From an uncultured Syntrophobacteraceae bacterium (lineage in GTDB: Bacteria > Desulfobacterota > Syntrophobacteria > Syntrophobacterales > Syntrophobacteraceae): 64,000 nucleotides of DNA. A model generated the notes under the pieces. The model saw only the letters and a program-made list of their open reading frames with translations, had not been told where the DNA came from and did not search any database. Positions 26,727-43,188 of this stretch are shown one piece after another (the stretch's first letter is position 1; the number at the start of each line of letters is the position of its first letter). Made by a program: the position numbers and the translations under genes. Where the stretch lies: NCBI GenBank assembly GCA_964603955.1, contig CAZRWT010000002.1:18014-82013 (forward strand). The letters are read 5' to 3'.

Positions 26727-26876
26727 GGTTGCCGTCCTCGCTTACCTTATTGCCCGGTAATGGACCAGCCTACATTTTGAAACGCCCGCACCACTTGCAT
26801 GGGTATGTATGGGATGGCCCCATCTGCCTCCGGTCATGGGAATGTTCCCCGGAACGATAAATGGAATCCGCAGCCT

Positions 26877-29126
26877 TCAATATCCCCGGGCCAGGGCGTC
26901 GGCTGCTTCCTTGAGGTCCAGGTACCACTGGTGTTTGGGGCGGCCGCTTTCCGTGTCCATCTCCGCGAAGGCTTCCTCGATAGGTACTTTTTCGATGCCC
27001 CTTCCGCGCAGGCCCATGGCGTACACCTCCGAGTTCCCGTTTTTCAGGACATCGAGCATGTGGAAGGCGGCGTTGGCTCCCAGGCGGCTGGCGAGGATGC
27101 GGTCGAAGGCCGTGGGGAGCCCGCCCCTCTGGACGTGCCCCAGGATGGCGGTGCGCACTTCGAACTGTCCCTTGCTCTCCTCTTCCATGAGCCGCTGAAT
27201 GAAATCCGTGGTGTAGCGCCGGGAGGAATGTTCGTTGCGCATGAAGATGACCATGCGCTTTCCGCCATCGAAGCTCTTTTTGAGTGTCTTGACGTCTTCG
27301 TTGAGTTCGGCCAGGCTGATGCCGTATTCGGGCAGGTAGGCTTTTTCGGCTCCCGTGGCCAGGGCGCTCATGAGCGCCAGGAAGCCGCACCTGCGGCCCA
27401 TGACTTCCACGATGAAGGTGCGGCGGGTGGCCCCCGCCGTGTGGCGGATTTTGTCCGCCGCTTCGACGATGTTGTTCAAGGCCGTGTCCACTCCGATGGA
27501 AAATTCGGTGCCGGGGAGGTTGTTGTCGATGGTCGCGGGCAGGAGGACCATGGGAATGTTGAGTTCGTCGAATTCCCGGCGCCGTTCCACCAGTTGAGCC
27601 ACCTTTCGGTAGGTGCCCCAGCCTCCGATGGCGATGAGTCCCCGGATGTTGTGGCGGCGGATGTTGGCGGCGATTTCCGCGTAGTCGGTTTCCTTGAAAT
27701 CCACGCGGGCCGTTCCGATTTCCGATCCCGGCCGGTTGACCCAGAGCACCAGTTCGTTCCAGTCCAGGGGGGTGAGCCGCCCCTTGATGAGCCCCACGAA
27801 GCCGTCCCGAACACCAAGAACGGAGGCTCCCTGGTTGATGAGGCAGCGGGCCGCCACGCTCACGGCCGTGTTCATTCCCGGAGAATCGGCGCCTCCCGTG
27901 AGGATGGCCACCGTTCCTTCGTGGGTGCATTCCTGGGCGGGGGTGATGCGCGTGAGCGTCTTGACCAGTTCGAGGGTCTGGATGAAGGAGCCGCCGCGCA
28001 ATTCCTGAGCCCTTGCGTAGTTTCCGTTTTCCACTTCCGCCCGGACGGCCTGGCTCTTTTCCACCACCTCGACCAGGGGGGTGGCCACCACGCGATTTTT
28101 GATCAGTCCCAGCATGTGGCAATGGTCGGCATCGGGGGCGTTCACCAGGGTGTCCACGGCTGCCACTCCCAGCCGGGTGGCCATGATGCGGTCGAAGGCG
28201 GTGGGGGCTCCCCCCCGCTGCACATGCCCGAGGACGGTGACGCGAACATCGAGCTTGAGCCTTTCCGCCAGGATTTGCTTGACTTCGTTGGAGCTGATGA
28301 TGAGCCCGTCGGGATGCCTGGCGCCTTCCGCCACGATGACCATGTGGTGGGGGCGGCCGATCTCGCGGGCTCTCTCGATGGACTTCACCATTTTCTGGTG
28401 CCACCGCAGTTCGAGTTCCTCTTCGGGTACCAGGACCCAGGAGGCTCCTCCCGCCAGGGTGGCGCTCAGGGCCAGGTAGCCGCAATGCCTGCCCATGGTT
28501 TCCAGGATGAAAGTGCGCTGGTGGGACGCCGCCGTGGACGCCAGGTTGTCGATGGCCCGCACGATGTGGTTGAGGGCCGTATCGGCTCCGATGGACATGT
28601 CCGTGCCGTGGAGGTCGTTGTCGATGGAGCCCGGCAGGCCGATGACTTTCAGGGAAGGAGGGGGGGCGGCAGGGGCGGTTTCTTCCTCGCCTTCGTCCCG
28701 GCCCTCGTTTTCGCTTTCTTCGTCATCATCCTTGACCAGGCCTTTGGTCAGTGCTTCCACATGCTCCCGCCACTCGTCGGCCAGGACGTGGGCCCCCATG
28801 AGCGACCCGTCGCCTCCCACGACGATCAATGCATCCAGTCCCAACTCGAGCATGTTCCGGACTGCCAGCCTGCGGCCTTCGGGAGACCGGAACTTTTCCG
28901 ACCGGGCGGTGCCCAGGAAGGTGCCTCCCTTTTGGAGTGCCCCTCCCACATCGTTCCACGAGAGGGGTTTGACGGCGTCCCCCCCCTTGACCAGACCTTC
29001 GTACCCGTCGTAAATGCCGTAAATGGTCAGGCCTCTCTGAATGGCTCTTCGAACCACCGCCCTCACGGCCGCGCTCATTCCTGGAGAATCGCCTCCGCTG
29101 GTCATGACCCCCAAGGTTTTGATCAT
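26877..29126 (-). CDS. pfkA: tandem-fused (two-domain) 6-phosphofructokinase, 749 aa
   Basis: The N-terminal half carries GVMTSGGDSPGMSAAVRAVV, VVGGDGS, PGSIDND, MGRHCG and GHVQRGG. The C-terminal half carries a second, degenerate set: ILTGGADSPGMNTAV, IGGWGT, PATIDNN, MGRRCG and GHVQRGG. An acidic insert DDDEESENEGRDEGEEE sits in the N-terminal half. Confidence 0.9.
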   Translation of the reverse strand: MIKTLGVMTSGGDSPGMSAAVRAVVRRAIQRGLTIYGIYDGYEGLVKGGDAVKPLSWNDVGGALQKGGTFLGTARSEKFRSPEGRRLAVRNMLELGLDALIVVGGDGSLMGAHVLADEWREHVEALTKGLVKDDDEESENEGRDEGEEETAPAAPPPSLKVIGLPGSIDNDLHGTDMSIGADTALNHIVRAIDNLASTAASHQRTFILETMGRHCGYLALSATLAGGASWVLVPEEELELRWHQKMVKSIERAREIGRPHHMVIVAEGARHPDGLIISSNEVKQILAERLKLDVRVTVLGHVQRGGAPTAFDRIMATRLGVAAVDTLVNAPDADHCHMLGLIKNRVVATPLVEVVEKSQAVRAEVENGNYARAQELRGGSFIQTLELVKTLTRITPAQECTHEGTVAILTGGADSPGMNTAVSVAARCLINQGASVLGVRDGFVGLIKGRLTPLDWNELVLWVNRPGSEIGTARVDFKETDYAEIAANIRRHNIRGLIAIGGWGTYRKVAQLVERRREFDELNIPMVLLPATIDNNLPGTEFSIGVDTALNNIVEAADKIRHTAGATRRTFIVEVMGRRCGFLALMSALATGAEKAYLPEYGISLAELNEDVKTLKKSFDGGKRMVIFMRNEHSSRRYTTDFIQRLMEEESKGQFEVRTAILGHVQRGGLPTAFDRILASRLGANAAFHMLDVLKNGNSEVYAMGLRGRGIEKVPIEEAFAEMDTESGRPKHQWYLDLKEAADALARGY

Positions 29127-29169
29127 GATAAAGACCCCCTCATGGTGAAAGTGTAATCTGGTTTTTGCT

Positions 29170-29802: not shown

Positions 29803-32800
29803 ATGTTCATGAATGAAAAAAAAGCATCTCAGCCAGTAACTGGCGCGGTAATGGTGGTTGGAGGCGGTATCGCCGGGGTGCAGTCGGCTCTCGATCTGGC
29901 GGAGTCGGGCTACTACGTTTACCTGGTGGAAAACAGCCCTTCCATTGGTGGTGTGATGGCGCAGTTGGACAAGACTTTTCCGACCAACGACTGTTCCATG
30001 TGTATCCTTTCCCCCAAGCTGGTGGAAGGGGGCCGTCACCTCAACATTAAACTCATGACCCTGTGCGATGTGGAAGCCCTCGATGGAGAGGCCGGCAATT
30101 TCACCGTGACGGTGAAGGAACGCCCGAGATACATCGATACGACAAAGTGCATCGCCTGCGGGGTCTGTGCCGAAAAGTGCCCCAAGAAGGTCGAGGACAC
30201 CTTCAATGAAGGCCTGGGACCTCGCAAGGCGGCTTACGTCAAGTATCCCCAGGCGGTTCCTCTCAAGTATGCCATCGACGAGGACAACTGTATTTATTTC
30301 AAAAACGGCAAGTGCCGCGCCTGTGAAAAGTTCTGTCCCGCCGGTGCTGTTGATTTCAATCAGAAGCCTCAGACGCACACCGTCCAGGTGGGTTCCGTCA
30401 TTCTCGCCCCCGGCTTCAAGGCCTTCAGCCCCGAAGTCTATGATACCTACGGTTTCGGGAAATATCCCAACGTGATCACCAGCATGCAGTTTGAGCGCAT
30501 CCTGAGTGCTTCGGGTCCCTTCGAAGGCCACCTGGTGCGTCCTTCCGACAAGAAGGAGCCCAAAAAGATTGCCTGGCTCCAGTGCGTGGGGTCCCGCGAC
30601 ATCCACCATGGGGCTCACGGCTACTGTTCCGGCGTGTGCTGTATGTACGCCATCAAGGAAGCGGTCATCGCCAAGGAGCATTCCAAGGAAGGGCTCGATA
30701 CGGCCATCTTCTTCATGGACATGCGCACTTACGGCAAGGATTTCGAGCGCTATTACAACCGGGCCAAAGGAGAGACGGGGGTACGCTTCATCCGGTCCCG
30801 TATCCACAGTGTGGCCACCCTTCCCGGTACCGATGACCTGGTGCTCGAATATGCCGACGAAAACGGTCAGCTTCAAAGTGAAGTCTTCGACATGGTGGTT
30901 TTGTCCATCGGCCTGGAAATCGGCGACGAACTGAAGAAAATGGCGGAAAGAATCGGAGTGGGGCTCGATGCCGATGGGTTTGCGCAAACGAGCTGCTTCA
31001 CGCCCGTGGCCACTTCGAAAGAAGGTGTTTTCGCCTGTGGCGCCTTTTCCGGTCCCAAGGACATTCCCTACTCGGTCATGGAAGCATCCGCGGCATCTGC
31101 GGCATCCGCCGCCCTGCTTTCTTCCGTGCGGGGCACCCTCACCCAGGAAAAGACCTACCCGGCCGAGGAGGATGTGGAAAAAGAAGAGCCGCGTGTCGGT
31201 GTTTTTGTCTGCCATTGCGGCATCAACATCGGCAGCGTGGTGAATGTTCCAGGGGTGAAGGAATATGCCCGGTCCCTCCCCGGAGTGGCTTACGTGGCGG
31301 AAAACCTTTTCACCTGTTCGCAGGACACGCAGCAGATCATTCGCGATGCCATCAAGGAACACAAGCTCAACCGCGTAGTGGTGGCGGCCTGTACGCCCCG
31401 CACCCATGAGCCCCTCTTCCAGGAAACCATCCGCGAGGCGGGCCTCAACCGTTATCTTTTTGAACTGGCCAACATTCGCGACCAGGATTCCTGGGTGCAT
31501 CAGGCCGAACCCGAAAAGGCCACGGAAAAGGCCAAGGACCTGGTGCGCATGGCGGTGGCCAAGGTGGCGTTGCTCGAACCTATCGAGCGCATGAGGGTCG
31601 ATTTGAACCAGGATGCCCTGGTGATCGGCGGTGGTGTTTCGGGCATGAGCGCCGCCGTGAACCTGGCGGACCAGGGCTTCAAGACCTACCTTGTCGAGGA
31701 AAAGCCCGAACTTGGCGGCCATGCCCTCAAGGTGCATAAGACCTGGAAAGGCGAAGATGTTGCTTCCTACGTCAAGGCACTGGTGGACAAGGTCGAAAAG
31801 CATGCCAATATCGAGGTGCTCAAGGGCGCCAAGGTGACCGATGTTTCCGGCTTCGTGGGGCAGTTCAAGACCACGGTGCAGACCGACGGCGCGGCTCGCG
31901 AATTGGAGCACGGGGTGGCCATTATCGCCACGGGCGCTCATTCCCTGGCTCCCGATCTGTACCTCTACGGTCAAAATGATCGCGTGAGCCGCTGGCACGA
32001 CTTGCAAAAAATGCTTGAGGAAGACCCCAAAAAGCTGGACGAGGCGGAAGCTGTGGCCTTCATCCAGTGTGTAGGGTCCCGCGAACCCGAACGTCCCTAC
32101 TGCTCGAAAATCTGCTGTACCGCTTCGGTGCAACAGGCACTGGACCTCAAGGCGAAAAAGCCGGACCTGGATGTTTACATCCTGTATCGCGACATGCGTA
32201 CTTACGGCGGACGGGAAGACCTGTACAAAAAGGCCCGCGAGCAGGGCGTTCTTTTCATTCGTTTCAACCAGGATGAAAAGCCGACCGTGGAAGCCGTGAA
32301 GGACGGCGGCAAGGAAAAATTGCGGCTCACCGTCAAGGACCATATCCTGGGGCGTCCCATCAAGATCGATGTGGATTACCTCAACCTGGCCACGGCCATC
32401 ATTCCCAAGGGCCAGGAAGAGCTGGCCAAGTTCTTCAAGGTGCCCCTCAATGAAGACGGCTTCTTCCTGGAAGCCCACATGAAACTGCGCCCGGTGGATT
32501 TTGCCACGGACGGCGTGTTCATTGCCGGTCTGGCGCATTATCCCAAGCCCATCGAGGAGTCCATCGCCCAGGCCCAGGCGGCGGCGGCTCGGGCATCGAG
32601 CGTGCTGGCCAAGCCCTATGTCGAGGTCGAGCCGGTTGTTTCCGTGGTGAACCAGGATATGTGTATCGGCTGCGGACTCTGTGAAGCTTCCTGTCCCTTC
32701 GGGGCCATTCGGCTGCACAAAATCGTCGGCAAGGGGTATCGAGCTGAAACCATTTCCGCATCCTGCAAGGGCTGCGGTGTTTGCGCCGCGTCGTGTCCCA

Positions 32801-32877
32801 TGAAAGCCATCGACATGATGCATTTCCGTGACCGTCAAATCTGTGCTGCGATTCGTGCGGGTGGTGCACGTCAATAG
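29803..32877 (+). CDS. hdrA: large HdrA-like flavoprotein (internally duplicated HdrA core; HdrL-like), Cys form
   Basis: 1024 aa. First FAD site VVGGGIAGVQSALDLAESG; second dinucleotide site VIGGGVSGMSAAVNLADQG. Two copies of the HdrA cluster motif are present: CVGSRDIHHGAHGYCSGVCC and CVGSREPERPYCSKICC. Several ferredoxin-type CxxCxxCxxxCP motifs. Confidence 0.88.
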   Translation: MFMNEKKASQPVTGAVMVVGGGIAGVQSALDLAESGYYVYLVENSPSIGGVMAQLDKTFPTNDCSMCILSPKLVEGGRHLNIKLMTLCDVEALDGEAGNFTVTVKERPRYIDTTKCIACGVCAEKCPKKVEDTFNEGLGPRKAAYVKYPQAVPLKYAIDEDNCIYFKNGKCRACEKFCPAGAVDFNQKPQTHTVQVGSVILAPGFKAFSPEVYDTYGFGKYPNVITSMQFERILSASGPFEGHLVRPSDKKEPKKIAWLQCVGSRDIHHGAHGYCSGVCCMYAIKEAVIAKEHSKEGLDTAIFFMDMRTYGKDFERYYNRAKGETGVRFIRSRIHSVATLPGTDDLVLEYADENGQLQSEVFDMVVLSIGLEIGDELKKMAERIGVGLDADGFAQTSCFTPVATSKEGVFACGAFSGPKDIPYSVMEASAASAASAALLSSVRGTLTQEKTYPAEEDVEKEEPRVGVFVCHCGINIGSVVNVPGVKEYARSLPGVAYVAENLFTCSQDTQQIIRDAIKEHKLNRVVVAACTPRTHEPLFQETIREAGLNRYLFELANIRDQDSWVHQAEPEKATEKAKDLVRMAVAKVALLEPIERMRVDLNQDALVIGGGVSGMSAAVNLADQGFKTYLVEEKPELGGHALKVHKTWKGEDVASYVKALVDKVEKHANIEVLKGAKVTDVSGFVGQFKTTVQTDGAARELEHGVAIIATGAHSLAPDLYLYGQNDRVSRWHDLQKMLEEDPKKLDEAEAVAFIQCVGSREPERPYCSKICCTASVQQALDLKAKKPDLDVYILYRDMRTYGGREDLYKKAREQGVLFIRFNQDEKPTVEAVKDGGKEKLRLTVKDHILGRPIKIDVDYLNLATAIIPKGQEELAKFFKVPLNEDGFFLEAHMKLRPVDFATDGVFIAGLAHYPKPIEESIAQAQAAAARASSVLAKPYVEVEPVVSVVNQDMCIGCGLCEASCPFGAIRLHKIVGKGYRAETISASCKGCGVCAASCPMKAIDMMHFRDRQICAAIRAGGARQ

Positions 32878-32963: not shown

Positions 32964-33722
32964 ATGAGTCAAACTTTCGAGCCGAAGATTCTGGCCTTCC
33001 TATGCAACTGGTGTGCATATGCCGGGGCCGACCTGGCGGGCGTGTCCCGCTTTCAATACCCGCCGACCATCCGGGTCATCCGCACCATGTGCTCGGGCCG
33101 CGTCGATCCCACTCACGTGGTGGAGGGGTTGAAGAGCGGCTTTGACGGTGTCTTCGTCTTTGGTTGACACCTCGGCGACTGTCATTACCTGGAAGGTAAT
33201 GTTTATACCCAGAAGCGTATGCGCGTTGTGTCCCGGTTGCTGGAACTGGCCGGTATCGGCAGTGACAGGATGCACCTGAGATGGGTGAGTGCCGCGGAGG
33301 GACAGATTTTCGCGGATTTTGTAAAGGAATTGAGCGCTGTCATCGGTGAAAAGGGCCCCTTCGATCCCAAGGAGCATCAGTTGAAGCTGGCCGCTGTGGA
33401 GGGAGCATTGAATTCTCCTCGCCTCAGGTGGCTTTTGGGCATGGATCGGCAGCTCACCGAGCGGGAGAATGTGTATCACCATAAGTTGGACGATGCGGCT
33501 TATGAGAAGCTGGTGGATCAGGCGACGGAAGAAGAGTATCAGAAAGCCATGATCCTGGAGGTTCTCAAGGATGGGCCGCAATCAGTGCGCGAAATCGCAG
33601 GCAAGAGCGGGCTGCCGATTTACACGGTGTCTCAGCTGCTCGGTGACATCGAAAAGGCCGGTAAAATCGAGTTTCACGGCTACGAAGGGACCACACCGAA
33701 GTTCATCAGGCTGGCGGCATAG
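32964..33722 (+). CDS. mvhD: MvhD-like protein with in-frame UGA (probable Sec at 33165..33167) and C-terminal winged-helix-like extension
   Basis: Track ORFs 32964..33167 and 33219..33722 share a frame, and the only stop between them is this TGA. VFVFG-TGA-HLGDCHYLEGN aligns to VWVSGCHPGDCHYIEGN of the paralog at 37032. The C-terminal region is ILEVLKDGPQSVREIAGKSGLPIYTVSQLLGDIEKAGKIEF. Confidence 0.8.
33183..33201 (+). other. putative bacterial SECIS-like hairpin for UGA 33165
   Basis: CATTACC tggaa GGTAATG: a 7-bp perfect stem starting 15 nt after the UGA, with a GG-containing loop. Confidence 0.55.
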
Positions 33723-33845: not shown

Positions 33846-36800
33846 ATGATGAACGCTAGCAATAACAATAAAGTCGGCGCTGTAATGGTCGTCGGAGCCG
33901 GCATCGCCGGCATGCAGGCGGCCCTGGACCTGGCAGATTCAGGTTATTACGTCCATCTCGTGGACCGCTCACCCACCGTGGGCGGGATCATGGCTCAGCT
34001 GGACAAGACGTTCCCGACCAACGACTGTGCCATGTGAGTCATCTCACCCAAACTGGTCGAGGTCGGCCGGCATCATAATGTAAATATCATCACCAACTCT
34101 TCCGTTGATTCTCTGGAGGGGGAAGCTGGAAACTTTACGGCAAAGCTCAAAACTCAACCGAGGTACATCGATCCGCTGCGCTGCACCGGTTGCGGCGACT
34201 GCGCCAAGGTGTGCCCCGTGACAAGCGTCAACGAGCACAACTGTGGACTGGACAAGCGTGCGGCTACCTATATCCGCTATGCTCAGGCCGTGCCCCTGGT
34301 TTTTGCCATCGATACGGACATCTGTATCGGGTGCGGCCTTTGTGAAAAAGTGTGTCTGGCCCAGGCCATCAAGTACGACGATCAGGCCCGCTACACCGAA
34401 GTGAAGATCGGGTCCGTCATTTTGGCCACCGGTAACGACGTGTTCGATCCTTCTCATTTCGATACCTACAGCTACGCTCAACTTCCCAACGTGATCACCA
34501 GTATGGAGTTCGAGCGTATTCTCAGTGCTTCCGGTCCTTATATGGGCCATCTCATGCGGCCCTACGACCGGGAAGAGCCCAGAAAGGTCGCCTGGTTGCA
34601 ATGCGTGGGTTCCCGAGACACGCACCACTGTGACAATCCCTACTGTTCGGGCGTGTGTTGTATGTATGCCATCAAGGAAGCCGTCATCGCCAAGGAGCAT
34701 TCGCACAGCGGCATGGAGGCGTCCATCTTCTATATGGACATGCGCACTTACGGAAAAGACTTCGAGCAGTATTACGACAAGGCCAAGGAAGAAGGCGTGC
34801 GATTTATCCGGTCGCGCGTCCATTCGGTGGAACCGGTGGGGGATGGAGACCTCGAAATCACCTATGCGGATGAAACCGGCCAGGTCAAGCAGGAAGTGTT
34901 CAACCTGGTGATCCTTTCCGTAGGGTTCCAGGTAGGGAAGGAAGGCATCGAGCTTGCTGAAAAGCTTGGTATCGACCTCAATGAAAACCGTTTCGTCAAA
35001 ACCGACAGTTTCACCCCCGTGGCCACTTCGCGGGAAGGTGTGTATGTCTGCGGAACCTTCCAGGGTCCCAAGGACATTCCCCAGTCCGTGATGGAAGCAT
35101 CGGCGGCGGCGTCGGCATCCAGCCTCCTTTTGAGCGACGCGCGCTGGACCGAAGCCACGGTCAAGGAAAAGCCCACGGAAAGAAATATCATCGGTGAACG
35201 CCCCCGCATCGGCGTGTTTGTGTGCCAGTGCGGTATCAACATCGGCGGCATCGTGAACATTCCCAAGGTGCGGGAATATGCCCGTACCCTGCCTTATGTG
35301 ACTTATGTGGAAGACAATCTCTATACCTGTTCCCAGGACACCCAGGTGAAAATGGCCCAGGTGATCAAGGAACAGGGGATCAACCGCGTGGTGGTGGCTG
35401 CCTGTACGCCTCGTACTCACGAGCCTCTCTTCCAGGAGACTCTGGCCAACGCGGAACTGAACAAGTACCTCTTTGAAATGGCCAACATTCGAAACCAGGA
35501 TTCCTGGGTGCATTCGGGCGATCCCGTGAAAGCCACGGAGAAAGCCATGGACCTGGTGCGCATGGCCGTTTCCAAGGTAGCCCTCCTCGAACCCCTCAAG
35601 GAATCGGAACTGGGAGTGACGAGGAAGGCCATGGTGGTCGGCGGCGGTGTTGCCGGCATGGTGGCGGCCAAGGAACTGGCGGACCAGGGGTATCCCGTGT
35701 ACCTCGTGGAGAGGTCTGCACAGTTGGGCGGCCAGGCGAGGAAGCTGTTCCAGACCTGGAGGGGCGAGAGCATCCCGGCCTATGTGGATGAGCTGGCCAA
35801 AGAAGTGGAAAACCACCCCAACATCACGCTTTACCTGAACAGTGAACTGAAAAACGTGGACGGGTTTGTAGGGAATTTCAAGTCTACCATTCAAAACGGC
35901 GGTGAACCGGAACTCGTCGAGCACGGGGTCACCATCATCGCCACGGGTGGTCGAGAACTGCAACCCGAGGAATATTGCTATAAAAAACATCCCCGTATCG
36001 TGACGCATCAGGAACTGGATCAGCGGTTCGCTGAGAAAGATCCCAGTCTCAAGAGCATCAACAGTGCCGTTTTCATTCAGTGCGTGGGCTCGCGAGAACC
36101 TGACCGTCCCTATTGCAGCCGAGTTTGCTGCACCCATTCCGTGGAGAGCGCTCTCGAGCTGAAAAAGCTCAATCCCGAAAGTGATGTGTATGTGCTCTAC
36201 CGGGATATGCGGACTTACGGGGAACGTGAATTGATTTACCAGGAAGCCCGCAAGAAAGGTGTGATCTTCATCCGCTACTCCCTGGACAACAAGCCCCAGG
36301 TGGAAGTGGTGAACGACAAGGTCCAGGTGACCGTGTTCGATCCCATCCTTCAGCGGCCCATCCGTGTGGTGAGTGACCTGGTGACGCTGGCGACGGCCAT
36401 CCTTCCCAATGAAACCGATGCCCTGTCTCAGTTTTTCAAGGTACCGGTCAACGCGGAAGGGTTTTTCATCGAGGCCCATGCCAAGCTGCGTCCCGTGGAT
36501 TTCTCCACGGACGGTGTGTTTTTATGCGGTCTGGCCCACTATCCCAAGGCCATTGACGAGAGCATCGCTCAGGCCAAGGCTGCGTCGGCCCGCGCCGCGA
36601 CCCTCCTGGCTCGCGACTCGATTTTCTTCAGTGGGATGGTGGCCTACACGAGGCCCATCGATTGCAGCAGCTGCGGGGTTTGTGTGAGCATCTGCCCGTT
36701 CAGTGCGCCGCGTTTCATCGAGACGGGGCGGGATGCGGGCAAGGCGGAAATCAACCCGGCTCTTTGCAAGGGCTGCGGGCTTTGCGTGGCTTCGTGCCGT

Positions 36801-36866
36801 TCGGGTGCCATCGGGCTGCGAGGCTTCGATGACTCCCAGATTTTTGCCATGATCGATAATGTTTGA
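33846..36866 (+). CDS. hdrA: large HdrA-like flavoprotein, selenocysteine form (UGA at 34035..34037)
   Basis: Track ORFs 33846..34037 and 34209..36866 share a frame, and I read no other stop between them. [21 protein letters not shown] aligns to FPTNDCSMCILSPKLVEGG of the paralog at 29803. The rest is collinear with paralog 1 ([37 protein letters not shown]). Confidence 0.85.
34053..34070 (+). other. putative bacterial SECIS-like hairpin for UGA 34035
   Basis: CTGGTCG aggt CGGCCGG: a 7-bp stem including 2 G-U pairs, loop AGGU, starting 15 nt after the UGA. Confidence 0.5.
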
Positions 36867-37031: not shown

Positions 37032-37463
37032 ATGTCCGATTGGGAACCGAAAATCGTAGCCTTCCTGTGCAACTGGTGTTCGTATGGGGCGGCGGACCTC
37101 GCAGGCGTCAGCCGCATGCAGTATCCGCCGAACTTTCGTGTCATCAGAGTACCTTGTACAGGTCGAATCAATCCTAAATTCATTCTTTCCGCCCTGCGTC
37201 ACGGCGCGGATGGGGTATGGGTGTCCGGATGCCACCCCGGAGATTGCCATTACATCGAGGGGAACCTCTACGCGCGCCGGAAATTTGCCCTTTTGAAAAA
37301 CATGTTGGAGCATATGGGCATCGAGCCCAAACGTCTCCATTTTTCATGGATTTCTTCCGCGGAATCCACCAAGTTTGCCGATGTGGCTCGCGAAGTGATC
37401 CGTACGGTCAAGGAAGCAGGTCCGGCTCGACATTTCATCAAAAAGCAAGCTGAGGTGGCGTAG
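37032..37463 (+). CDS. mvhD: MvhD/FlxD-like protein (methyl-viologen-reducing hydrogenase delta subunit family), Cys form
   Basis: 143 aa. Motifs KIVAFLCNWCSYGAADLAG, RVPCTGR and VSGCHPGDCHY. Confidence 0.88.
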   Translation: MSDWEPKIVAFLCNWCSYGAADLAGVSRMQYPPNFRVIRVPCTGRINPKFILSALRHGADGVWVSGCHPGDCHYIEGNLYARRKFALLKNMLEHMGIEPKRLHFSWISSAESTKFADVAREVIRTVKEAGPARHFIKKQAEVA

Positions 37464-38414
37464 ATGCAAGCATATACCGAACGGATTCGAGAGGCGGCGA
37501 AACGCTTGTTGAGTGAGGGCAAGGCGGATGTGGTGATCGGATTTCGCAAGGGCACCATTCCCTTCATGAACGAGCCCTACCTTGCCAAAACGGCCGAACA
37601 GGTCGATCAGCTCATGTGGGACGGCAACTGTGGTGTGAACCTCGCCAATTATCTCACCAAGAGGACGGATCGCGTTGCCGTTGTGGCCAAGGGGTGCGAT
37701 TCGAGAAACATCGTGGAGCACATTGTCGAGAACCAGGTCAAACGCGACAACCTCCACATCATCGGAGTCCCCTGCAAGGGGATGATCGACAAGCGTCGCA
37801 TCAACGGCGAACTCAAGGGCAAGGAGCCTTTGACCGTCGAGGAAACGGAAAAGGAAATTCAGATTAAGGGCCGTGACTGGAACTTGACGCTGGATCGTAA
37901 GGAATTCCTCCAGGAAAATTGTGCCATCTGTATCCACCGCAATCCCGTCATTTACGATGAGCTGGTGGGTGACCTGGTGGAGGAGCAGAAAGACGTTGAT
38001 CGTTACGCCGACGTGAGGAAGATCGAGGCCATGGGTGCCGAGGAGAAATGGAAATATTTCGACGATCTCATCTCCGGGTGCATCCGCTGTTATGCCTGCC
38101 GCAACGCCTGTCCGGCATGCTATTGCCCGACCTGCTTCGTGGATGAGTCGCGGCCTCAGTGGGTGGGAAAATCCACTGATCCCACCGACACGCGCACCTT
38201 TCACTTTTTGAGGGCTTACCACCTGGCGGGGCGTTGTACCGATTGCGGCTCCTGTGAGAGGGCCTGTCCCGTGGGCATCAAGGTACGCCAATTCAATAAG
38301 AAGCTCGAGAAGGACGTCAAGGAACTGTTCGATTACGAAGCCGGGATCAACCCGGATGTGCGCCCGGCTCTCGACTTCTATCGACCCGATGATCCCCAGG
38401 GATTCATCAAGTGA
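37464..38414 (+). CDS. 4Fe-4S cluster protein (FlxB/FlxC- or FrhB-related)
   Basis: 316 aa. The start ATG directly follows the mvhD stop. Motifs CIRCYACRNACPACYCPTC and CTDCGSCERACP. Confidence 0.7.
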   Translation: MQAYTERIREAAKRLLSEGKADVVIGFRKGTIPFMNEPYLAKTAEQVDQLMWDGNCGVNLANYLTKRTDRVAVVAKGCDSRNIVEHIVENQVKRDNLHIIGVPCKGMIDKRRINGELKGKEPLTVEETEKEIQIKGRDWNLTLDRKEFLQENCAICIHRNPVIYDELVGDLVEEQKDVDRYADVRKIEAMGAEEKWKYFDDLISGCIRCYACRNACPACYCPTCFVDESRPQWVGKSTDPTDTRTFHFLRAYHLAGRCTDCGSCERACPVGIKVRQFNKKLEKDVKELFDYEAGINPDVRPALDFYRPDDPQGFIK

Positions 38415-38557: not shown

Positions 38558-39604
38558 ATGTCGGAAATTTATATCTCCAAAGAAAAATTTCCAGAAGTCG
38601 TAGGACAGCTCATGAGCCGCGGTCGTGTCTATGGACCCGTGTTTCAAGGGATGTATCATGAGTTTGCCCGGCTGGAGAAACCGGAAGACATAGACCTCGG
38701 CTTTCAGAACACGCGCCTTTCGCCAAAGGAGCTTTTTCATCCTCAATGTGAAAGGATGTTCACCTATTCCCTGGCCAAGGACGATCCCGAGTGTTGCATC
38801 GTCAAGGAAGCTCCCAAGGATTACTCGCCTCGAGTGGTTTTGGGCATCCGTCCCTGTGACGCCAAGGCGTTTCAACTGGACGACTGCAACTTCGACACGG
38901 AAACCATCAAGGACCCCTGGTGGGTGGAAAGAAGAAAAACCACCACCCTGGTGGGGCTTGCCTGCAACACCCCTTGCAACACCTGTTTTTGTACCACGGT
39001 GGGTACCGGCCCCTTCGATACATCGGGACTGGACGCGCTCATGGTGGATGTGGGAGACGGCTATGTGATCCGTGCCGTCACGGACAAGGGCAAAGAATGC
39101 ATCGGGGCCGTGAAGGGCGCTCAAGCGGTGCCGACCCCCGCCGCAGAAAAGGAAGCCCAGCTCAAAAAAGCGGCCGAGGACGGCATGGGCCAGGTATTCG
39201 ATATGAAGCCCATCTACGAGAAAAAGACCCTGGACCTTTTCAACGATCCCCTTTGGGATGAGGTCCAGTTCGCGTGCATCAACTGCGGAACCTGCACTTT
39301 TGTATGCCCCACCTGCTGGTGCTTCGACATTCAGGACGAAGTTCAGGGAGATGCGGGAGACCGCTTGAAAATGTGGGATTCCTGCATGTTTCCCCTGTTC
39401 ACCTTCCATGGGTCGGGTCACAATCCGCGCTCTCAAAAGCTTCAGAGGGTTCGGCAGCGGTTCATGCACAAGCTCAAGTACTATCCCGAAAAGTACGGAA
39501 ACGGACCGACTTGCGTGGGTTGTGGTCGCTGTGTGAAGTCCTGCCCGGTCAACATCGACATTCGACATGTGGCTCGCCTCATGTCCGCAGCCTGCAGTTG
39601 TTAG
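38558..39604 (+). CDS. 4Fe-4S dicluster protein (AsrA / sulfhydrogenase-beta / FlxB/C-like)
   Basis: 348 aa. Motifs CINCGTCTFVCPTCWCFD and CVGCGRCVKSCP. Positioned directly upstream of an AsrB/HydG-like flavoprotein. Confidence 0.7.
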   Translation: MSEIYISKEKFPEVVGQLMSRGRVYGPVFQGMYHEFARLEKPEDIDLGFQNTRLSPKELFHPQCERMFTYSLAKDDPECCIVKEAPKDYSPRVVLGIRPCDAKAFQLDDCNFDTETIKDPWWVERRKTTTLVGLACNTPCNTCFCTTVGTGPFDTSGLDALMVDVGDGYVIRAVTDKGKECIGAVKGAQAVPTPAAEKEAQLKKAAEDGMGQVFDMKPIYEKKTLDLFNDPLWDEVQFACINCGTCTFVCPTCWCFDIQDEVQGDAGDRLKMWDSCMFPLFTFHGSGHNPRSQKLQRVRQRFMHKLKYYPEKYGNGPTCVGCGRCVKSCPVNIDIRHVARLMSAACSC

Positions 39605-39634: not shown

Positions 39635-40477
39635 GTGAGGAATCCTTATCTGCCTTATCCTGTCCGTATCGAGTCCATCGTGACGGAAACGGAAGATCGC
39701 AATCTCAAGACGTTCAAGTTCGTCTTTCTCAACAAGGAAGACGAAGAGAGCTTCAAATACATTCCCGGCCAGTTTGCCGAGCTTTCCGTGCCGGGCCAGG
39801 GCGAAATCCCCATCGGTATCGCCTCGTCCCCCACGGAAAAAGGCTTCATCATGTTCACGGTCAACAAGGTGGGGAAGGTATCGAGCTACATGCACAACAT
39901 GCAGGTCGGCGACATCATGGGTGTGCGCGGCCCCCTGGGCAACTGGTACCCCTGGGAAACGCTCGAGGGCAAGAATATCGTCATCATCGGCGGTGGTTTT
40001 GCCTTCACGACCCTGCGCTCGTCCATCGAGTACATGTTGCAGCCCGAAAACCGCTCCCGTTTCGGGAAGATCGACGTGGTTTACGGCGCCCGGACCCCCG
40101 GCCTTTTGCTCTACAAGGACCAGTTGGCGGCCTGGGAACAGCGGGACGACATCGACATGCACATCACCGTGGATTCCAGCAACGACCCCAACTGGAAGTA
40201 CAACGTGGGTTTCGTGCCGGCGGTGACCAAGGAGAAGGCCCCGAGCGCGGAAAATTCCTACGCCATCATCTGCGGGCCCCCCATCATGATCAAGTTCACC
40301 CTGCCGGTGCTGACCGAACTGGGATTCCCGCCCGAGCGGATCATTTCCAGTCTCGAAATGAGGATGAAATGTGGCATCGGCATTTGCGGTCGCTGTAACC
40401 TGGGGACCGAGTATGTTTGTAAGGACGGTCCCGTTTTCACGTTGGAAAAGCTTTCCCAGTTGCCCAACGAGTATTGA
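39635..40477 (+). CDS. FAD/NAD(P)H-binding oxidoreductase with C-terminal 2Fe-2S (AsrB / HydG / PyrK / FlxA-like)
   Basis: 280 aa, GTG start with GGAGGA RBS. Motifs FKYIPGQFAEL, VIIGGGFAFTTLRS and a C-terminal CGIGICGRCNLG. Confidence 0.8.
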   Translation: MRNPYLPYPVRIESIVTETEDRNLKTFKFVFLNKEDEESFKYIPGQFAELSVPGQGEIPIGIASSPTEKGFIMFTVNKVGKVSSYMHNMQVGDIMGVRGPLGNWYPWETLEGKNIVIIGGGFAFTTLRSSIEYMLQPENRSRFGKIDVVYGARTPGLLLYKDQLAAWEQRDDIDMHITVDSSNDPNWKYNVGFVPAVTKEKAPSAENSYAIICGPPIMIKFTLPVLTELGFPPERIISSLEMRMKCGIGICGRCNLGTEYVCKDGPVFTLEKLSQLPNEY

Positions 40478-40641
40478 TTTCGAGCATTGTTTTTTGCTGT
40501 GAAGCCTCGTGCATTGTCCTCGAGCCGGGGGCGATGCGCGGGGAAGACGTCTCACGGAAAAAGTGCTTCAAATGAAGAGTACCGTGTGTTATAGGCTTTA
40601 AGCGAGCCATCTACTTGAAAAACATTTCAGGGGAGAGAATT

Positions 40642-41862
40642 ATGGAGCCATTGCTGTTGACAAAGCGCGATAAGCGCAAACTGGCGAGCCAATACGCCGA
40701 CCTGTGCCTCACCTGTGGCACTTGTTCCGGTGGCTGTCCGGTCACAGGTGTTGACGGCCTGGATGTGCGGAAAGTCGTGCGCCTGGCCTTGCTCGGGTTG
40801 GATCAGGAAGTGATCGACTCGAAATTTCCTTGGGTTTGTACCCTCTGTGGACGGTGTGAGCACGCATGTCCCATGAACATCGACCTCCTTGCCCTGCTGC
40901 GGTCCGCCCGTAGCAAAAGAGCCAGGGACAAGGTGCCCGGTGTGCTGCACAAGGGTGTCGAGATGTGCTTGAAGACCGGCAACAACGTGGGCATTCCCAA
41001 GGATGACTTTGTCTTCCTGCTGGAAGATCTGGGAGTGGAGTTGGCCGAGGAACTGCCGGGTTTCGAGGTTCCCGTGGACAAAAAGGGAGCCAAGTACCTT
41101 TTCACCATCAATTCCAAGGAACCCTTCGCCGAACCCGAAGACATGATGTACTGGTGGCGTATCCTGTATGCCGCCAATGAATCGTGGACGGTGCCGTCGG
41201 AAAACTGGGAAGGTGTCAACTGGGGTCTGTTCACTGGTGACGACGAGGCCATGAAGGAAATCGTCGGACGCCTGGTGAAGAACTACAAGGAACTCGAGTG
41301 CGAGTACCTTGTCTTACCCGAATGAGGCCACGCTTACTATGCGACCAGGCTTGGTCTGCAAAAATGGTATGCCGACGAAGGCGTCAAGTTCCTCAGTATT
41401 CATGATCTCCTCACTTCGTATGTGAAAGAGGGTCGGATTAAACTGGACAAGACGATTCATCATCATCTGACCACGTATCACGATCCTTGCAACTATGCGC
41501 GTAAGAGCGAGCGCACTTTCGGCCACGGCTACTACGAGGAGCCCCGTTGGGTGACTCAGCAGTGCTGTGAGAATTTCGTGGAAATGTATCCCAACCGCGC
41601 CAACAATTTCTGTTGCGGTGCCGGCGGCGGTGCCTGGGCTTCCCCCTACGTGGAAGAGAGAATCTTCTACGGCAGGACCAAGGCCAAACAAATCAAGGAC
41701 ACCGGGGCCAAGCTGCTCATCGCTCCGTGTCACAACTGTCGTGACCAGATCATGAAGAGCCTCCGCAAGGAGTACGATTTTGAAGATGTAGAAGTCAAAT
41801 ACCTCTGGGAGCTGGTGGCCGACTCTTTGATCATCGAGCCCCGCGAGGAAGCCGAAGAATAA
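40642..41862 (+). CDS. fused HdrC/HdrB-type (HdrD/DsrK/GlpC-like) Fe-S protein with in-frame UGA (probable Sec at 41323..41325)
   Basis: Start at MEPLLL (GGGAGAG RBS). N-terminal ferredoxin motifs CLTCGTCSGGCP and CTLCGRCEHACP. Track ORFs 40615..41325 and 41422..41862 share a frame, and the only stop between them is this TGA. The C-terminal CCG domain reads DPC...CCGAGGG...PCHNC. Confidence 0.72.
41341..41359 (+). other. putative bacterial SECIS-like hairpin for UGA 41323
   Basis: GCGACC aggctt GGTC(t)GC: 6 bp with one bulge, a GG-containing loop, starting 15 nt after the UGA. Confidence 0.4.
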
Positions 41863-41891
41863 AGATTGTTCGGTTGACTCCATGAAACGAA

Positions 41892-41935
41892 AGCCCCAGA
41901 ATCGCGCCGTCGGCGTGTGCATGGGGCTTTTTTTT
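41892..41935 (+). terminator. intrinsic terminator after the hdr/flx-like operon
   Basis: AGCCCCA ...23 nt... TGGGGCT followed by an 8-nt T-run. Confidence 0.6.
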
Positions 41936-41964: not shown

Positions 41965-43188
41965 ATGAAAAAGAAACGAGACACCAAAAAAGCAAAAAAG
42001 AGCAGCGTGACTCTCTCCCGGGAAGACCAGCTCGAGTTGCAGATGATCCTGGATCGCCTTTCCGTCCAGAATCCTGATGGAGAGAGCTTCCATAATTACC
42101 TGGAATCGCTTGCGGGAATCCTTGGGAACCGGGAGGAATTCACTCTCGCTTTCCTGGAAGATTTGAGTAGGAAGCCCACGGTGGCGGGATTCAAAGTGTT
42201 CCAAAAGCTGAAGGATATTGTGAGGGGATCGGATAACAAGAGAGCCGTGAGGCAGGCGGCCTACAGGTTCGAGCAAAAAGGTTTTACCGTGGACGAGGGG
42301 AGTGAGGCTCGAGAAAAAGTTGTACTGGTTTCCAAAGAAGAGCGCAAAGCGGCGGCTCACCTCATTTCCATGGGAGGGACTTTCGGTTTTGTGGCAGCCA
42401 TCGTTCCGATCGAGGGTTATCCTGTTCCCATGGCTTTGACCGTTTACGCGCATGTTGCATCGGAAGCCATCAAGGCAAGCGTGACTCAGAGCTCCCACAG
42501 TGTTTATCGGGATTACCTGCGGATGGTTGCCGGAGAAGTTCCTGGATCAAATATCTGTGAGGTGCCCATCAGCCATGCGGCTCGTTTGGTGTTCGAATTG
42601 CCGGATTTGCTCGGGAGGCATGGGTATGTGGTCGAACTGGAAAGGGCTAAGGAACTCCTGAAACCCTACCATGATCCTCAAAAACCTCCACATATTCATG
42701 TTTTGATGGAAAAAATCGAGCATCCGGGCGAGGCGATACGGGCGGTTCGTATCCGGGAACTGATGGAGCACCTGGACCTTTCATGGCTCTTGTTTTCCCA
42801 GGAAGAACTGGCACCGTATCGCGATGATCTGGAAAGTTCGCGCAGCACCGTGCTCGTGCTGTCGACGGATATCATGCAGGATCGCACACAAGCCTTGTTG
42901 AAGCGGGCAGCCGACTCCTTGTGCGTCGGCAATAAAAAGCATTTCTACATCCGCTTTTTCGAAGAACAGGCACTGGTGTTTTATCTTTCCGGCATGATGA
43001 ATGCCGCTAAAGACGCCTGGATCACGGCACAACACCTTGCATCGGATCTGCCGCCCGGTGAAAATCCTGTTGTCGTCCAAGTGATTCTCTCGTCCATACA
43101 TGAACACTGGCCGGAAGCAAGCGAAGTGGCGCAGGAAGAACCGGAGCCTTACGAAACGACCGATTCAGGGTTGCTGATTCTGCGGTGA
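41965..43188 (+). CDS. hypothetical protein (no recognisable domain)
   Basis: 407 aa from MKKKRDTKKAKKSS. Coding-like composition. Located after a terminator and before yjbQ. Confidence 0.55.
   Translation: MKKKRDTKKAKKSSVTLSREDQLELQMILDRLSVQNPDGESFHNYLESLAGILGNREEFTLAFLEDLSRKPTVAGFKVFQKLKDIVRGSDNKRAVRQAAYRFEQKGFTVDEGSEAREKVVLVSKEERKAAAHLISMGGTFGFVAAIVPIEGYPVPMALTVYAHVASEAIKASVTQSSHSVYRDYLRMVAGEVPGSNICEVPISHAARLVFELPDLLGRHGYVVELERAKELLKPYHDPQKPPHIHVLMEKIEHPGEAIRAVRIRELMEHLDLSWLLFSQEELAPYRDDLESSRSTVLVLSTDIMQDRTQALLKRAADSLCVGNKKHFYIRFFEEQALVFYLSGMMNAAKDAWITAQHLASDLPPGENPVVVQVILSSIHEHWPEASEVAQEEPEPYETTDSGLLILR

Follow-up and report, generated by a model that had tools for sequence, protein, structure and literature searches.

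An in-frame UGA predicted to encode selenocysteine within a fused HdrD-type Fe-S oxidoreductase gene at the end of a Flox/HdrA operon

The gene described here lies in a 64,000-nucleotide stretch of DNA (hereafter the window) from an uncultured Syntrophobacteraceae bacterium (contig CAZRWT010000002.1), where an hdrD-like gene ('GlpC-like Fe-S oxidoreductase') occupies positions 40642..41862 of the + strand. Its reading frame runs from an ATG at 40642 to a TAA at 41860-41862 and holds an in-frame TGA at 41323-41325, the apparent end of an open reading frame (ORF) that begins at 40615 or, from the ATG, at 40642. Comparison with related genes strongly supports the reading of this TGA as a selenocysteine (Sec) codon, in which case read-through translation would give a protein of 406 residues with Sec as residue 228, in the motif LVLPE-U-GHAYY (41323..41325, + strand). 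This assignment draws on a cysteine (Cys) column in homologues, on an HmcF-like paralogue and on the same TGA in other species. The gene is a single unit, its UGA falls on a conserved Cys, a hairpin is co-conserved with the UGA, and the gene belongs to a Flox/HdrA context. We consider it very probable that all this reflects Sec recoding through the hairpin to make one HdrD-type protein, which would act as the terminal module of a Flox/HdrA system with the chemistry proposed below.

An initial annotation of this DNA, made from its sequence, had noted the in-frame TGA and the 32 open codons that follow it, and translation confirms both observations: the codons 3' of the TGA, GHAYYATRLGLQKWYADEGVKFLSIHDLLTSY, are all open. 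A Shine-Dalgarno-like sequence, GGGGAGAG (40630..40637, + strand), lies 4 nucleotides (nt) 5' of the ATG at 40642, and inspection of the sequence revealed no comparable ribosome-binding site before the GTG at 41422, from which gene callers start a 'second half'. A search of 5.8 billion proteins returned 3026 matches, and the best 120 of these, which we examined for coverage, extend over 87-100% of the query, indicating that fused proteins, not pairs of genes, are the norm among relatives. Likewise, the NCBIfam models for HmcF, TmcB and DsrK match collinearly across the UGA (e.g. residues 20-398 on HmcF). There is thus a single gene at this locus, not two.

If the UGA were a true stop, the locus would produce two polypeptides, a 227-amino-acid HdrC-like protein and a 146-amino-acid CCG protein initiated at GTG 41422, much like HdrC and HdrB. 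Public gene calls agree with such a division, exact 227- and 146-residue products being present in the collection, and in canonical HdrABC the B and C subunits are indeed separate. Nevertheless, we judge this explanation to be very unlikely. Besides the rule of fused homologues and the missing ribosome-binding site, the peptide encoded by the 32 intervening codons (GHAYYATR...) is conserved among Cys homologues, and the supposed stop coincides with a near-invariant Cys.

Specifically, the UGA column is Cys in 16 of the 17 homologues in alignment A1, where the motif reads LLLPE-C-GHAYYATR, and serine in the other. We also searched 596 Gb of species-representative genomes with a degenerate DNA pattern for P-E-TGA-G-H-A-Y-Y-A-T, and found the same-motif TGA in at least 119 of these genomes, all from Desulfobacterota, against a chance expectation that we estimate at about 0.3 matches. 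The same pattern with TGY was matched in 51 genomes, which likewise place Cys at this column. Therefore, with at least 119 TGA genomes versus 51 TGY genomes, Sec is the majority state in the subfamily. Some metagenome-assembled genomes (MAGs) harbor both forms (locus L008 with L125, and L064 with L153), and the nearest relatives, at 85.6% nucleotide identity, are two Syntrophobacteraceae MAGs from soda lakes. The flanking frames are open in nearly all of the listed TGA genomes, for about 230-330 codons upstream and 175-210 downstream. The Ser-bearing homologue (P0021, LLLPE-S-GHAYLATR) is full-length, and a Ser at this position would be unexpected if the residue is catalytically essential.

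Only one base separates TGA from TGC or TGT, and so an error in sequencing or assembly, or a mutation that inactivated the gene and left a pseudogene, might also place a TGA on a Cys column. A few related loci from long-read MAGs do have broken frames (L066 and L070). However, the occurrence of the same TGA between intact flanking frames in at least 119 independent species genomes effectively refutes this proposal, and the identical N-terminal product is found on independent contigs from several sources. Moreover, a co-conserved hairpin, described below, dictates codon choice even where this changes glycine (Gly) to Ser. We consider an error or a pseudogene hardly credible for the window gene. 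The short frames around the TGA in the two exceptional loci (23/48 codons in L066 and 59/97 codons in L070) suggest assembly frameshifts or real pseudogenes. A reassigned genetic code was also considered and is excluded because TGA serves as the stop of 9 of the 14 genes checked in the window.

The bacterial paradigm for Sec insertion is the selenocysteine insertion sequence (SECIS) of Escherichia coli fdhF, a coding-sequence hairpin 3' of the UGA whose small apical loop, some 20 nt from that codon, presents GG or GU. The hdrD-like gene carries a bacterial SECIS-like hairpin at 41341..41359 (+ strand), recognized by folding and by comparison, that is similar in lying within the coding sequence just 3' of the UGA and in having a small GG loop. 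The hairpin proposed in the initial annotation, GCGACC-AGGCUU-GGUC(U)GC beginning 15 nt after the UGA, is the one that we recover, and ViennaRNA draws it with the stem GCGACCA/UGGUC(U)GC and the apical loop GGCU at 41348-41351, 22 nt after the UGA. It differs from the fdhF element in that the loop is 3-4 nt further from the UGA, the 3' arm has a single bulged U, and two registers occur across species. A 63-nt fold of the window sequence alone is unexceptional (z = -1.07), and when the same nine codons are recoded synonymously, a fold as stable as the one observed arises in just 2.4% of cases.

The comparison between species is more informative than the single sequence. For the stretch +15..+41 relative to the UGA, using a threshold of -6 kcal/mol, we compared 120 TGA sequences with 51 Cys sequences. 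A fold at or below the threshold forms in every one of the 120 TGA forms (mean -9.1 kcal/mol) versus 5 of the 51 Cys forms (mean -3.8 kcal/mol), and the energies of these two sets of related sequences differ with p = 9e-23 by a Mann-Whitney test. Cys genes that specify the identical peptide YATRLGLQ(K/R) use codons that abolish the hairpin. The loop GG is enforced via an arginine (Arg) codon, which takes the form NGG in 119 of the 120 Sec forms versus 7 of the 51 Cys forms. The loop of the Sec forms reads GGCU or G(G)UU and is located 22-23 nt after the UGA, and the hairpin adopts one of two registers, GACCA-GGCU-UGGUC (52 unique sequences) or AACCCG-GUU-CGGGUU (34 unique sequences). In seven species, the first register exhibits a compensatory C:G to U:A double change that is made at the cost of a Gly to Ser substitution. 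That conservation of the hairpin is limited to TGA forms is a further argument against a true stop.

Two other results concern the extent and recognition of this element. An extended lower stem, pairing +12..+17 with +41..+46, is near-equal in Cys forms (4.4 vs 5.0 of 6 pairs), and we excluded it from the element because the coding constraint of the YY...W[YF] residues accounts for the pairing. Searches with Rfam, both at gathering thresholds and at E values up to 10, gave no SECIS match at this site, nor at the Sec sites in the mvhD and hdrA genes of the same window. Because Rfam also misses these two canonical sites, its silence is uninformative. Stable hairpins, with energies down to -14.8 kcal/mol, are retained in five of the 51 Cys forms, for example at loci encoding YATLLGLRR and YATLLGLHR, and these may be fossil SECIS elements left by recent conversions from Sec to Cys.

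Several considerations weigh against our interpretation. The case for Sec is made from sequence and comparison, and the full-length selenoprotein is a prediction. The selA, selB, selC and selD genes are absent from the 64-kb window, and no tRNA was detected there; indirect support for Sec machinery in the host comes from the presence of three UGA-plus-hairpin sites in DNA where TGA is otherwise a stop. The sequences compared for hairpin stability are not phylogenetically independent, and so the p-value overstates the significance of the difference. Covariation examined column by column is limited, as the registers differ and double changes occur at two pairs only. The counterpart in Syntrophobacter fumaroxidans, Sfum_1969, was undetected in a proteome study, where its database entry was possibly truncated (PMC5947623). 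Finally, we infer both the substrate and the part that Sec plays in the chemistry, whether nucleophile or cluster ligand. Even so, all the checks that were run (on the Cys column, the fusion and the hairpin) favor Sec, and the site is therefore secure. The initial annotation had ranked it below the other two candidate Sec codons of the window for lack of a Cys paralogue there, an assessment that we revise: the site is as secure as the two canonical Sec sites in mvhD and hdrA, which are presumably those other candidates.

The predicted protein begins with an HdrC-like ferredoxin domain for two [4Fe-4S] clusters (40696..40881, + strand; Pfam Fer4_8 and related families, residues 19-80). All eight of its ligands, C22, C25, C28 and C32 together with C66, C69, C72 and C76, are invariant in alignment A1, and the profile matches HdrC chains in the PDB with E about 1e-18. 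A complete CCG domain follows further downstream (41473..41751, + strand; Pfam PF02754, residues 278-370, E = 7e-13) and is predicted to bind one noncubane [4Fe-4S] cluster through C283, C324, C325, C363 and C366, which are invariant in the same alignment, as is G326. The protein has just one complete CX(n)CCGX(n)CX2C motif, and the N-terminal HdrB-like domain is without these Cys residues.

An AlphaFold model of the protein as a single chain, built from 18 sequences, is confident, with a predicted local distance difference test (pLDDT) score of 84.8 and a predicted template modeling (pTM) score of 0.85. This model aligns end to end with mycobacterial EtfD (TMq 0.69). Complete HdrB chains match it across some 285 columns, with TM values of 0.60-0.69 when normalised to HdrB, and the N-terminus is matched by HdrC. 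The HdrB fold match spans the UGA, which in the model places the codon inside the HdrB-like module, within a degenerate first CCG-like domain, and not at a junction between two proteins. A true stop would accordingly cut within the HdrB-like fold rather than between HdrC and HdrB. The initial annotation thus correctly joined two halves in one frame, but the boundary between ferredoxin and CCG parts that it drew at the UGA does not hold. Among the five Cys of the CCG motif, the register of secondary structures tentatively suggests the first Cys of CX2C as the counterpart of U228. When the C-terminal half was used for a PDB sequence search, only the complete CCG domain was aligned (to HdrB and EtfD), and no DsrK structure was found; an hhalign comparison of the N-terminal HdrB-like domain with the C-terminal CCG domain gave no significant alignment (probability 0.8%).

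The same fold is present in methanogen HdrB/HdrD (5ODC, 7BKB, 8RVU) and in mycobacterial EtfD (9OJN). Whereas HdrB/HdrD carry two noncubane clusters and two full CCG motifs, the first motif of the window protein is reduced to a single Sec. A canonical two-cluster HdrB/HdrD was rejected as an identity for this protein, in that only the C-terminal CCG motif is present, though the HdrB fold is kept. True GlpC identity was rejected as well: the GlpC equivalog models give 33 and 21 bits, far below their cut-offs of 278-280, and match the ferredoxin domain only. The HdrD-type fusion named in the initial annotation stands, and its 'GlpC-type' designation is a label derived from COG.

The closest functional parallels are DsrK, HmcF and TmcB, which are catalytic subunits of membrane-bound sulfate-respiration complexes and have the same HdrC-like domain for two [4Fe-4S] clusters, the same single CCG motif and a (T/G)ECGH residue. 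The Cys in this sequence is strictly conserved and has been proposed to be essential for disulfide reduction (PMC10861901). In contrast to these proteins, the window protein has Sec instead of Cys and soluble HdrA/Flox partners, and it scores far below the equivalog cut-offs (197, 186 and 164 bits for the DsrK, HmcF and TmcB models, versus 750, 735 and 400). It represents a distinct paralogous subfamily beside them. By chance, locus L004 furnished an HmcF-like paralogue (442 bits to the HmcF model) in which MTE-C-GH aligns with PE-U-GH of the window protein. The alignment indicates that Sec228 occupies the position of the (T/G)ECGH Cys, the sole survivor of a lost second CCG cluster. The initial annotation had compared the surroundings of the UGA to the (P/T)GC that starts CCG domains; the motif is instead (T/G/P)E-C/U-GH of the DsrK/HmcF/TmcB type.

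These features lead us to propose the following mechanism. The hairpin at 41341-41359 would act as a bacterial SECIS and recruit SelB carrying Sec-tRNA(Sec), such that recoding yields one 406-residue protein and not a 227-residue fragment. The product would be a soluble HdrD-type fusion of an HdrC-like part with two [4Fe-4S] clusters and an HdrB-like part with one noncubane [4Fe-4S] cluster and Sec228. Its most likely role is that of the terminal thiol/disulfide module in a flavin-based bifurcating or confurcating Flox/HdrA complex. The selenolate could attack one sulfur of a disulfide or trisulfide substrate, for which DsrC is the leading candidate, while the partner sulfur would be handled by the neighboring noncubane cluster. 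Two one-electron steps, passing from HdrA via the HdrC-like clusters, might then permit release of the products.

Perhaps Sec is inserted but serves instead to ligate the noncubane [4Fe-4S] cluster through its selenolate, permanently or in a switchable manner, and might thereby tune the potential of the cluster or hold its 'open' conformation. In favor of this role, the residue derives from a position that once supplied a cluster ligand in the lost CCG motif. However, the Cys that Sec replaces in known prokaryotic selenoproteins is mostly redox-active (PMC1794560), and the cited literature likens the motif to the redox-active ECGLH Cys of APS/PAPS reductases. We therefore think a ligand role rather unlikely and favor the nucleophilic selenolate.

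Because Sec is in the majority at the ECGH position (at least 119 versus 51 species), it may serve as a natural marker of the redox-active partner. As a tentative generalization, on which we place limited confidence, in all HdrD, DsrK, HmcF and TmcB enzymes with only one noncubane [4Fe-4S] cluster, the ECGH residue could act as the redox-active partner of that cluster. This would be compatible with either of two mechanisms, a Se-S (or S-S) intermediate with the substrate or reversible ligation of the cluster. If the latter is true, this would be the first natural selenolate-ligated noncubane Fe-S center. The presence of Sec at ECGH offers independent support for a catalytic residue at this position in DsrK-type enzymes (PMC10861901), and would provide a 77Se spectroscopic handle on the reduction of disulfides or trisulfides by one noncubane cluster and one chalcogen.

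An in-frame TGA also occurs in a second, more divergent HdrD-like paralogue that shares 39% identity with the window protein (L015:5149-5151, + strand, in the Desulfonatronospira MAG contig SLAE01000089.1). Its motif is NTE-U-GHELYAVRFG, and the hairpin CAGUCCG-GUU-CGGACUG is found at the same offset. The use of Sec at ECGH is therefore not confined to the PE-U-GHAYY subfamily.

The hdrD-like gene is the last in a series whose order is hdrA-like, mvhD (Sec), hdrA (Sec), floxD, floxC, floxB, floxA and hdrD (Sec), all on the + strand. The first hdrA-like gene (29803-32877, 1024 residues) is without an internal TGA and lies directly 5' of the Sec-encoding mvhD/frhD-like gene (32964..33722). Translation of the latter reveals a UGA at 33165 in FVFG-U-HLGDCHY, a known Sec position, with a GGA-loop hairpin at +26. 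The second hdrA-like gene (33846..36866; Pfam Pyr_redox_2 and Fer4) has a UGA at 34035 in TNDCAM-U-VISPK, a known CxxU Sec position, with an AGGU loop at +25. Downstream of each of the three UGAs in the window, a hairpin presents GG in its apical loop at +25 to +27. When the window was scanned for further in-frame TGA codons, only the mvhD site (33165) and the hdrD site were convincing; the hdrA UGA lies outside the filters of that scan and rests on translation and the fold of its hairpin.

The Flox genes that precede hdrD were recognized by Pfam, and comprise floxD (37032-37463, MvhD-like, in the Cys form), floxC (37464-38414, Fe-S), floxB (38558-39604, Fer4_22) and floxA (39635-40477, FAD/NAD-binding). 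By Pfam content and gene order, the cluster combines FlxA, FlxB, FlxC and an MvhD-like FlxD with HdrA and a CCG-type disulfide reductase, as is expected for a cluster of the Flox/Hdr type. No membrane cytochrome b or other membrane partner is adjacent, and the neighbors identified by Pfam are the soluble HdrA, MvhD and FloxABC proteins.

The end of the operon is marked by an intrinsic-terminator-like hairpin followed by a run of eight U residues (41889..41935, + strand), which begins 27 nt past the stop codon. Its fold has an energy of -27.4 kcal/mol (z = -3.74), and none of 200 shuffled sequences folds equally well. A terminator consensus scan, with a loop limit of 8 nt, missed the hairpin, which was detected by folding. 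Past this terminator, a 407-residue ORF (41965-43188, + strand) gave no Pfam match, and is kept beside the Sec hdrD gene in many Syntrophobacteraceae-type loci with 33-62% identity. Two additional ORFs in the window without a Pfam match (26799-29156, + strand, 785 residues, and 48936-50588, + strand, 550 residues) are either genes or shadows of the opposite strand.

The linkage of Sec hdrD to hdrA and mvhD/frhD genes recurs across related loci. The gene order seen beside the Sec gene in the window is repeated in Syntrophobacteraceae, in Desulfacinum and at other loci, and there is a second arrangement, hdrD-hdrA-mvhD, that includes both Sec and Cys forms.

In public collections, the gene is represented as two halves, 40642-41322 and 41422-41859, which are named 'heterodisulfide reductase subunit C' (227 residues) and 'Fe-S oxidoreductase' (140-157 residues), and the same split is seen in 22 and 30 cluster members, respectively, from related organisms. 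The Sec codon is thus systematically mis-annotated. In well over 100 species, orthologues are likewise divided into a spurious 'HdrC' and a spurious small 'Fe-S oxidoreductase', which hides the terminal catalytic subunit of Flox/HdrA complexes and may explain why the S. fumaroxidans HdrD was missing from the proteome (PMC5947623).

The selenoprotein family, its motif and its operon context have all been described before, and none of them is a new discovery. Under the names 'Fe-S oxidoreductase (GlpC)' and 'Fe-S oxidoreductase-like' selenoprotein, the family has been catalogued with the Sec motif UGH (PMC13188914); it is also called Sec-HdrD, and is carried by sulfate-reducing and syntrophic bacteria of the Deltaproteobacteria/Desulfobacterota. 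GlpC selenoproteins were reported in hdrA/frhD operons (PMC1794560), and a Sec-containing HdrD4 is annotated in Desulfobacterium autotrophicum (PMC2702500). The window gene shows no essential difference from this family, which includes three S. fumaroxidans GlpC selenoproteins and D. autotrophicum HdrD4: the UGH motif, the Cys homologues, the SECIS with a loop G and the linkage to Sec-containing hdrA and mvhD/frhD are the same (PMC13188914, PMC1794560, PMC2702500). Our additions are modest. First, we relate the UGH Sec to the ECGH Cys of DsrK, HmcF and TmcB; among the papers searched, none made a connection between the UGH motif of selenoproteins and the ECGH cysteine of DsrK, and none treated DsrK, selenocysteine and CCG together. 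Second, we note the splitting of the gene in public calls.

The cluster as a whole also has a precedent. In the S. fumaroxidans Hdr/Flox cluster Sfum_1969-1977, HdrD replaces HdrBC (PMC5947623), and the order and domain content agree with those of the window, with two hdrA genes, mvhD, floxDCBA and a fused HdrD. That cluster is a variant of FlxABCD-HdrABC from Desulfovibrio vulgaris. The canonical FlxABCD-HdrABC arrangement has separate HdrB and HdrC proteins and two CCG motifs, whereas the window has one fused protein with one CCG motif and Sec. The window copy also departs from other UGH family members in two respects: it closes a Flox-type operon at its 3' end instead of heading a glpC-hdrA-frhD-frhG-frhA operon, and it is without the N-terminal helix-turn-helix (HTH) domain that many members carry. 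This excisionase/MerR-type HTH (PF12728) is present on most full-length homologues (480-490 residues; P0001-P0055 and others), which usually head hdrD-hdrA-mvhD clusters. The observation also takes in Sec loci whose frame extends about 310-330 codons upstream of the TGA, and a DNA-binding domain on an Fe-S disulfide reductase is an odd combination.

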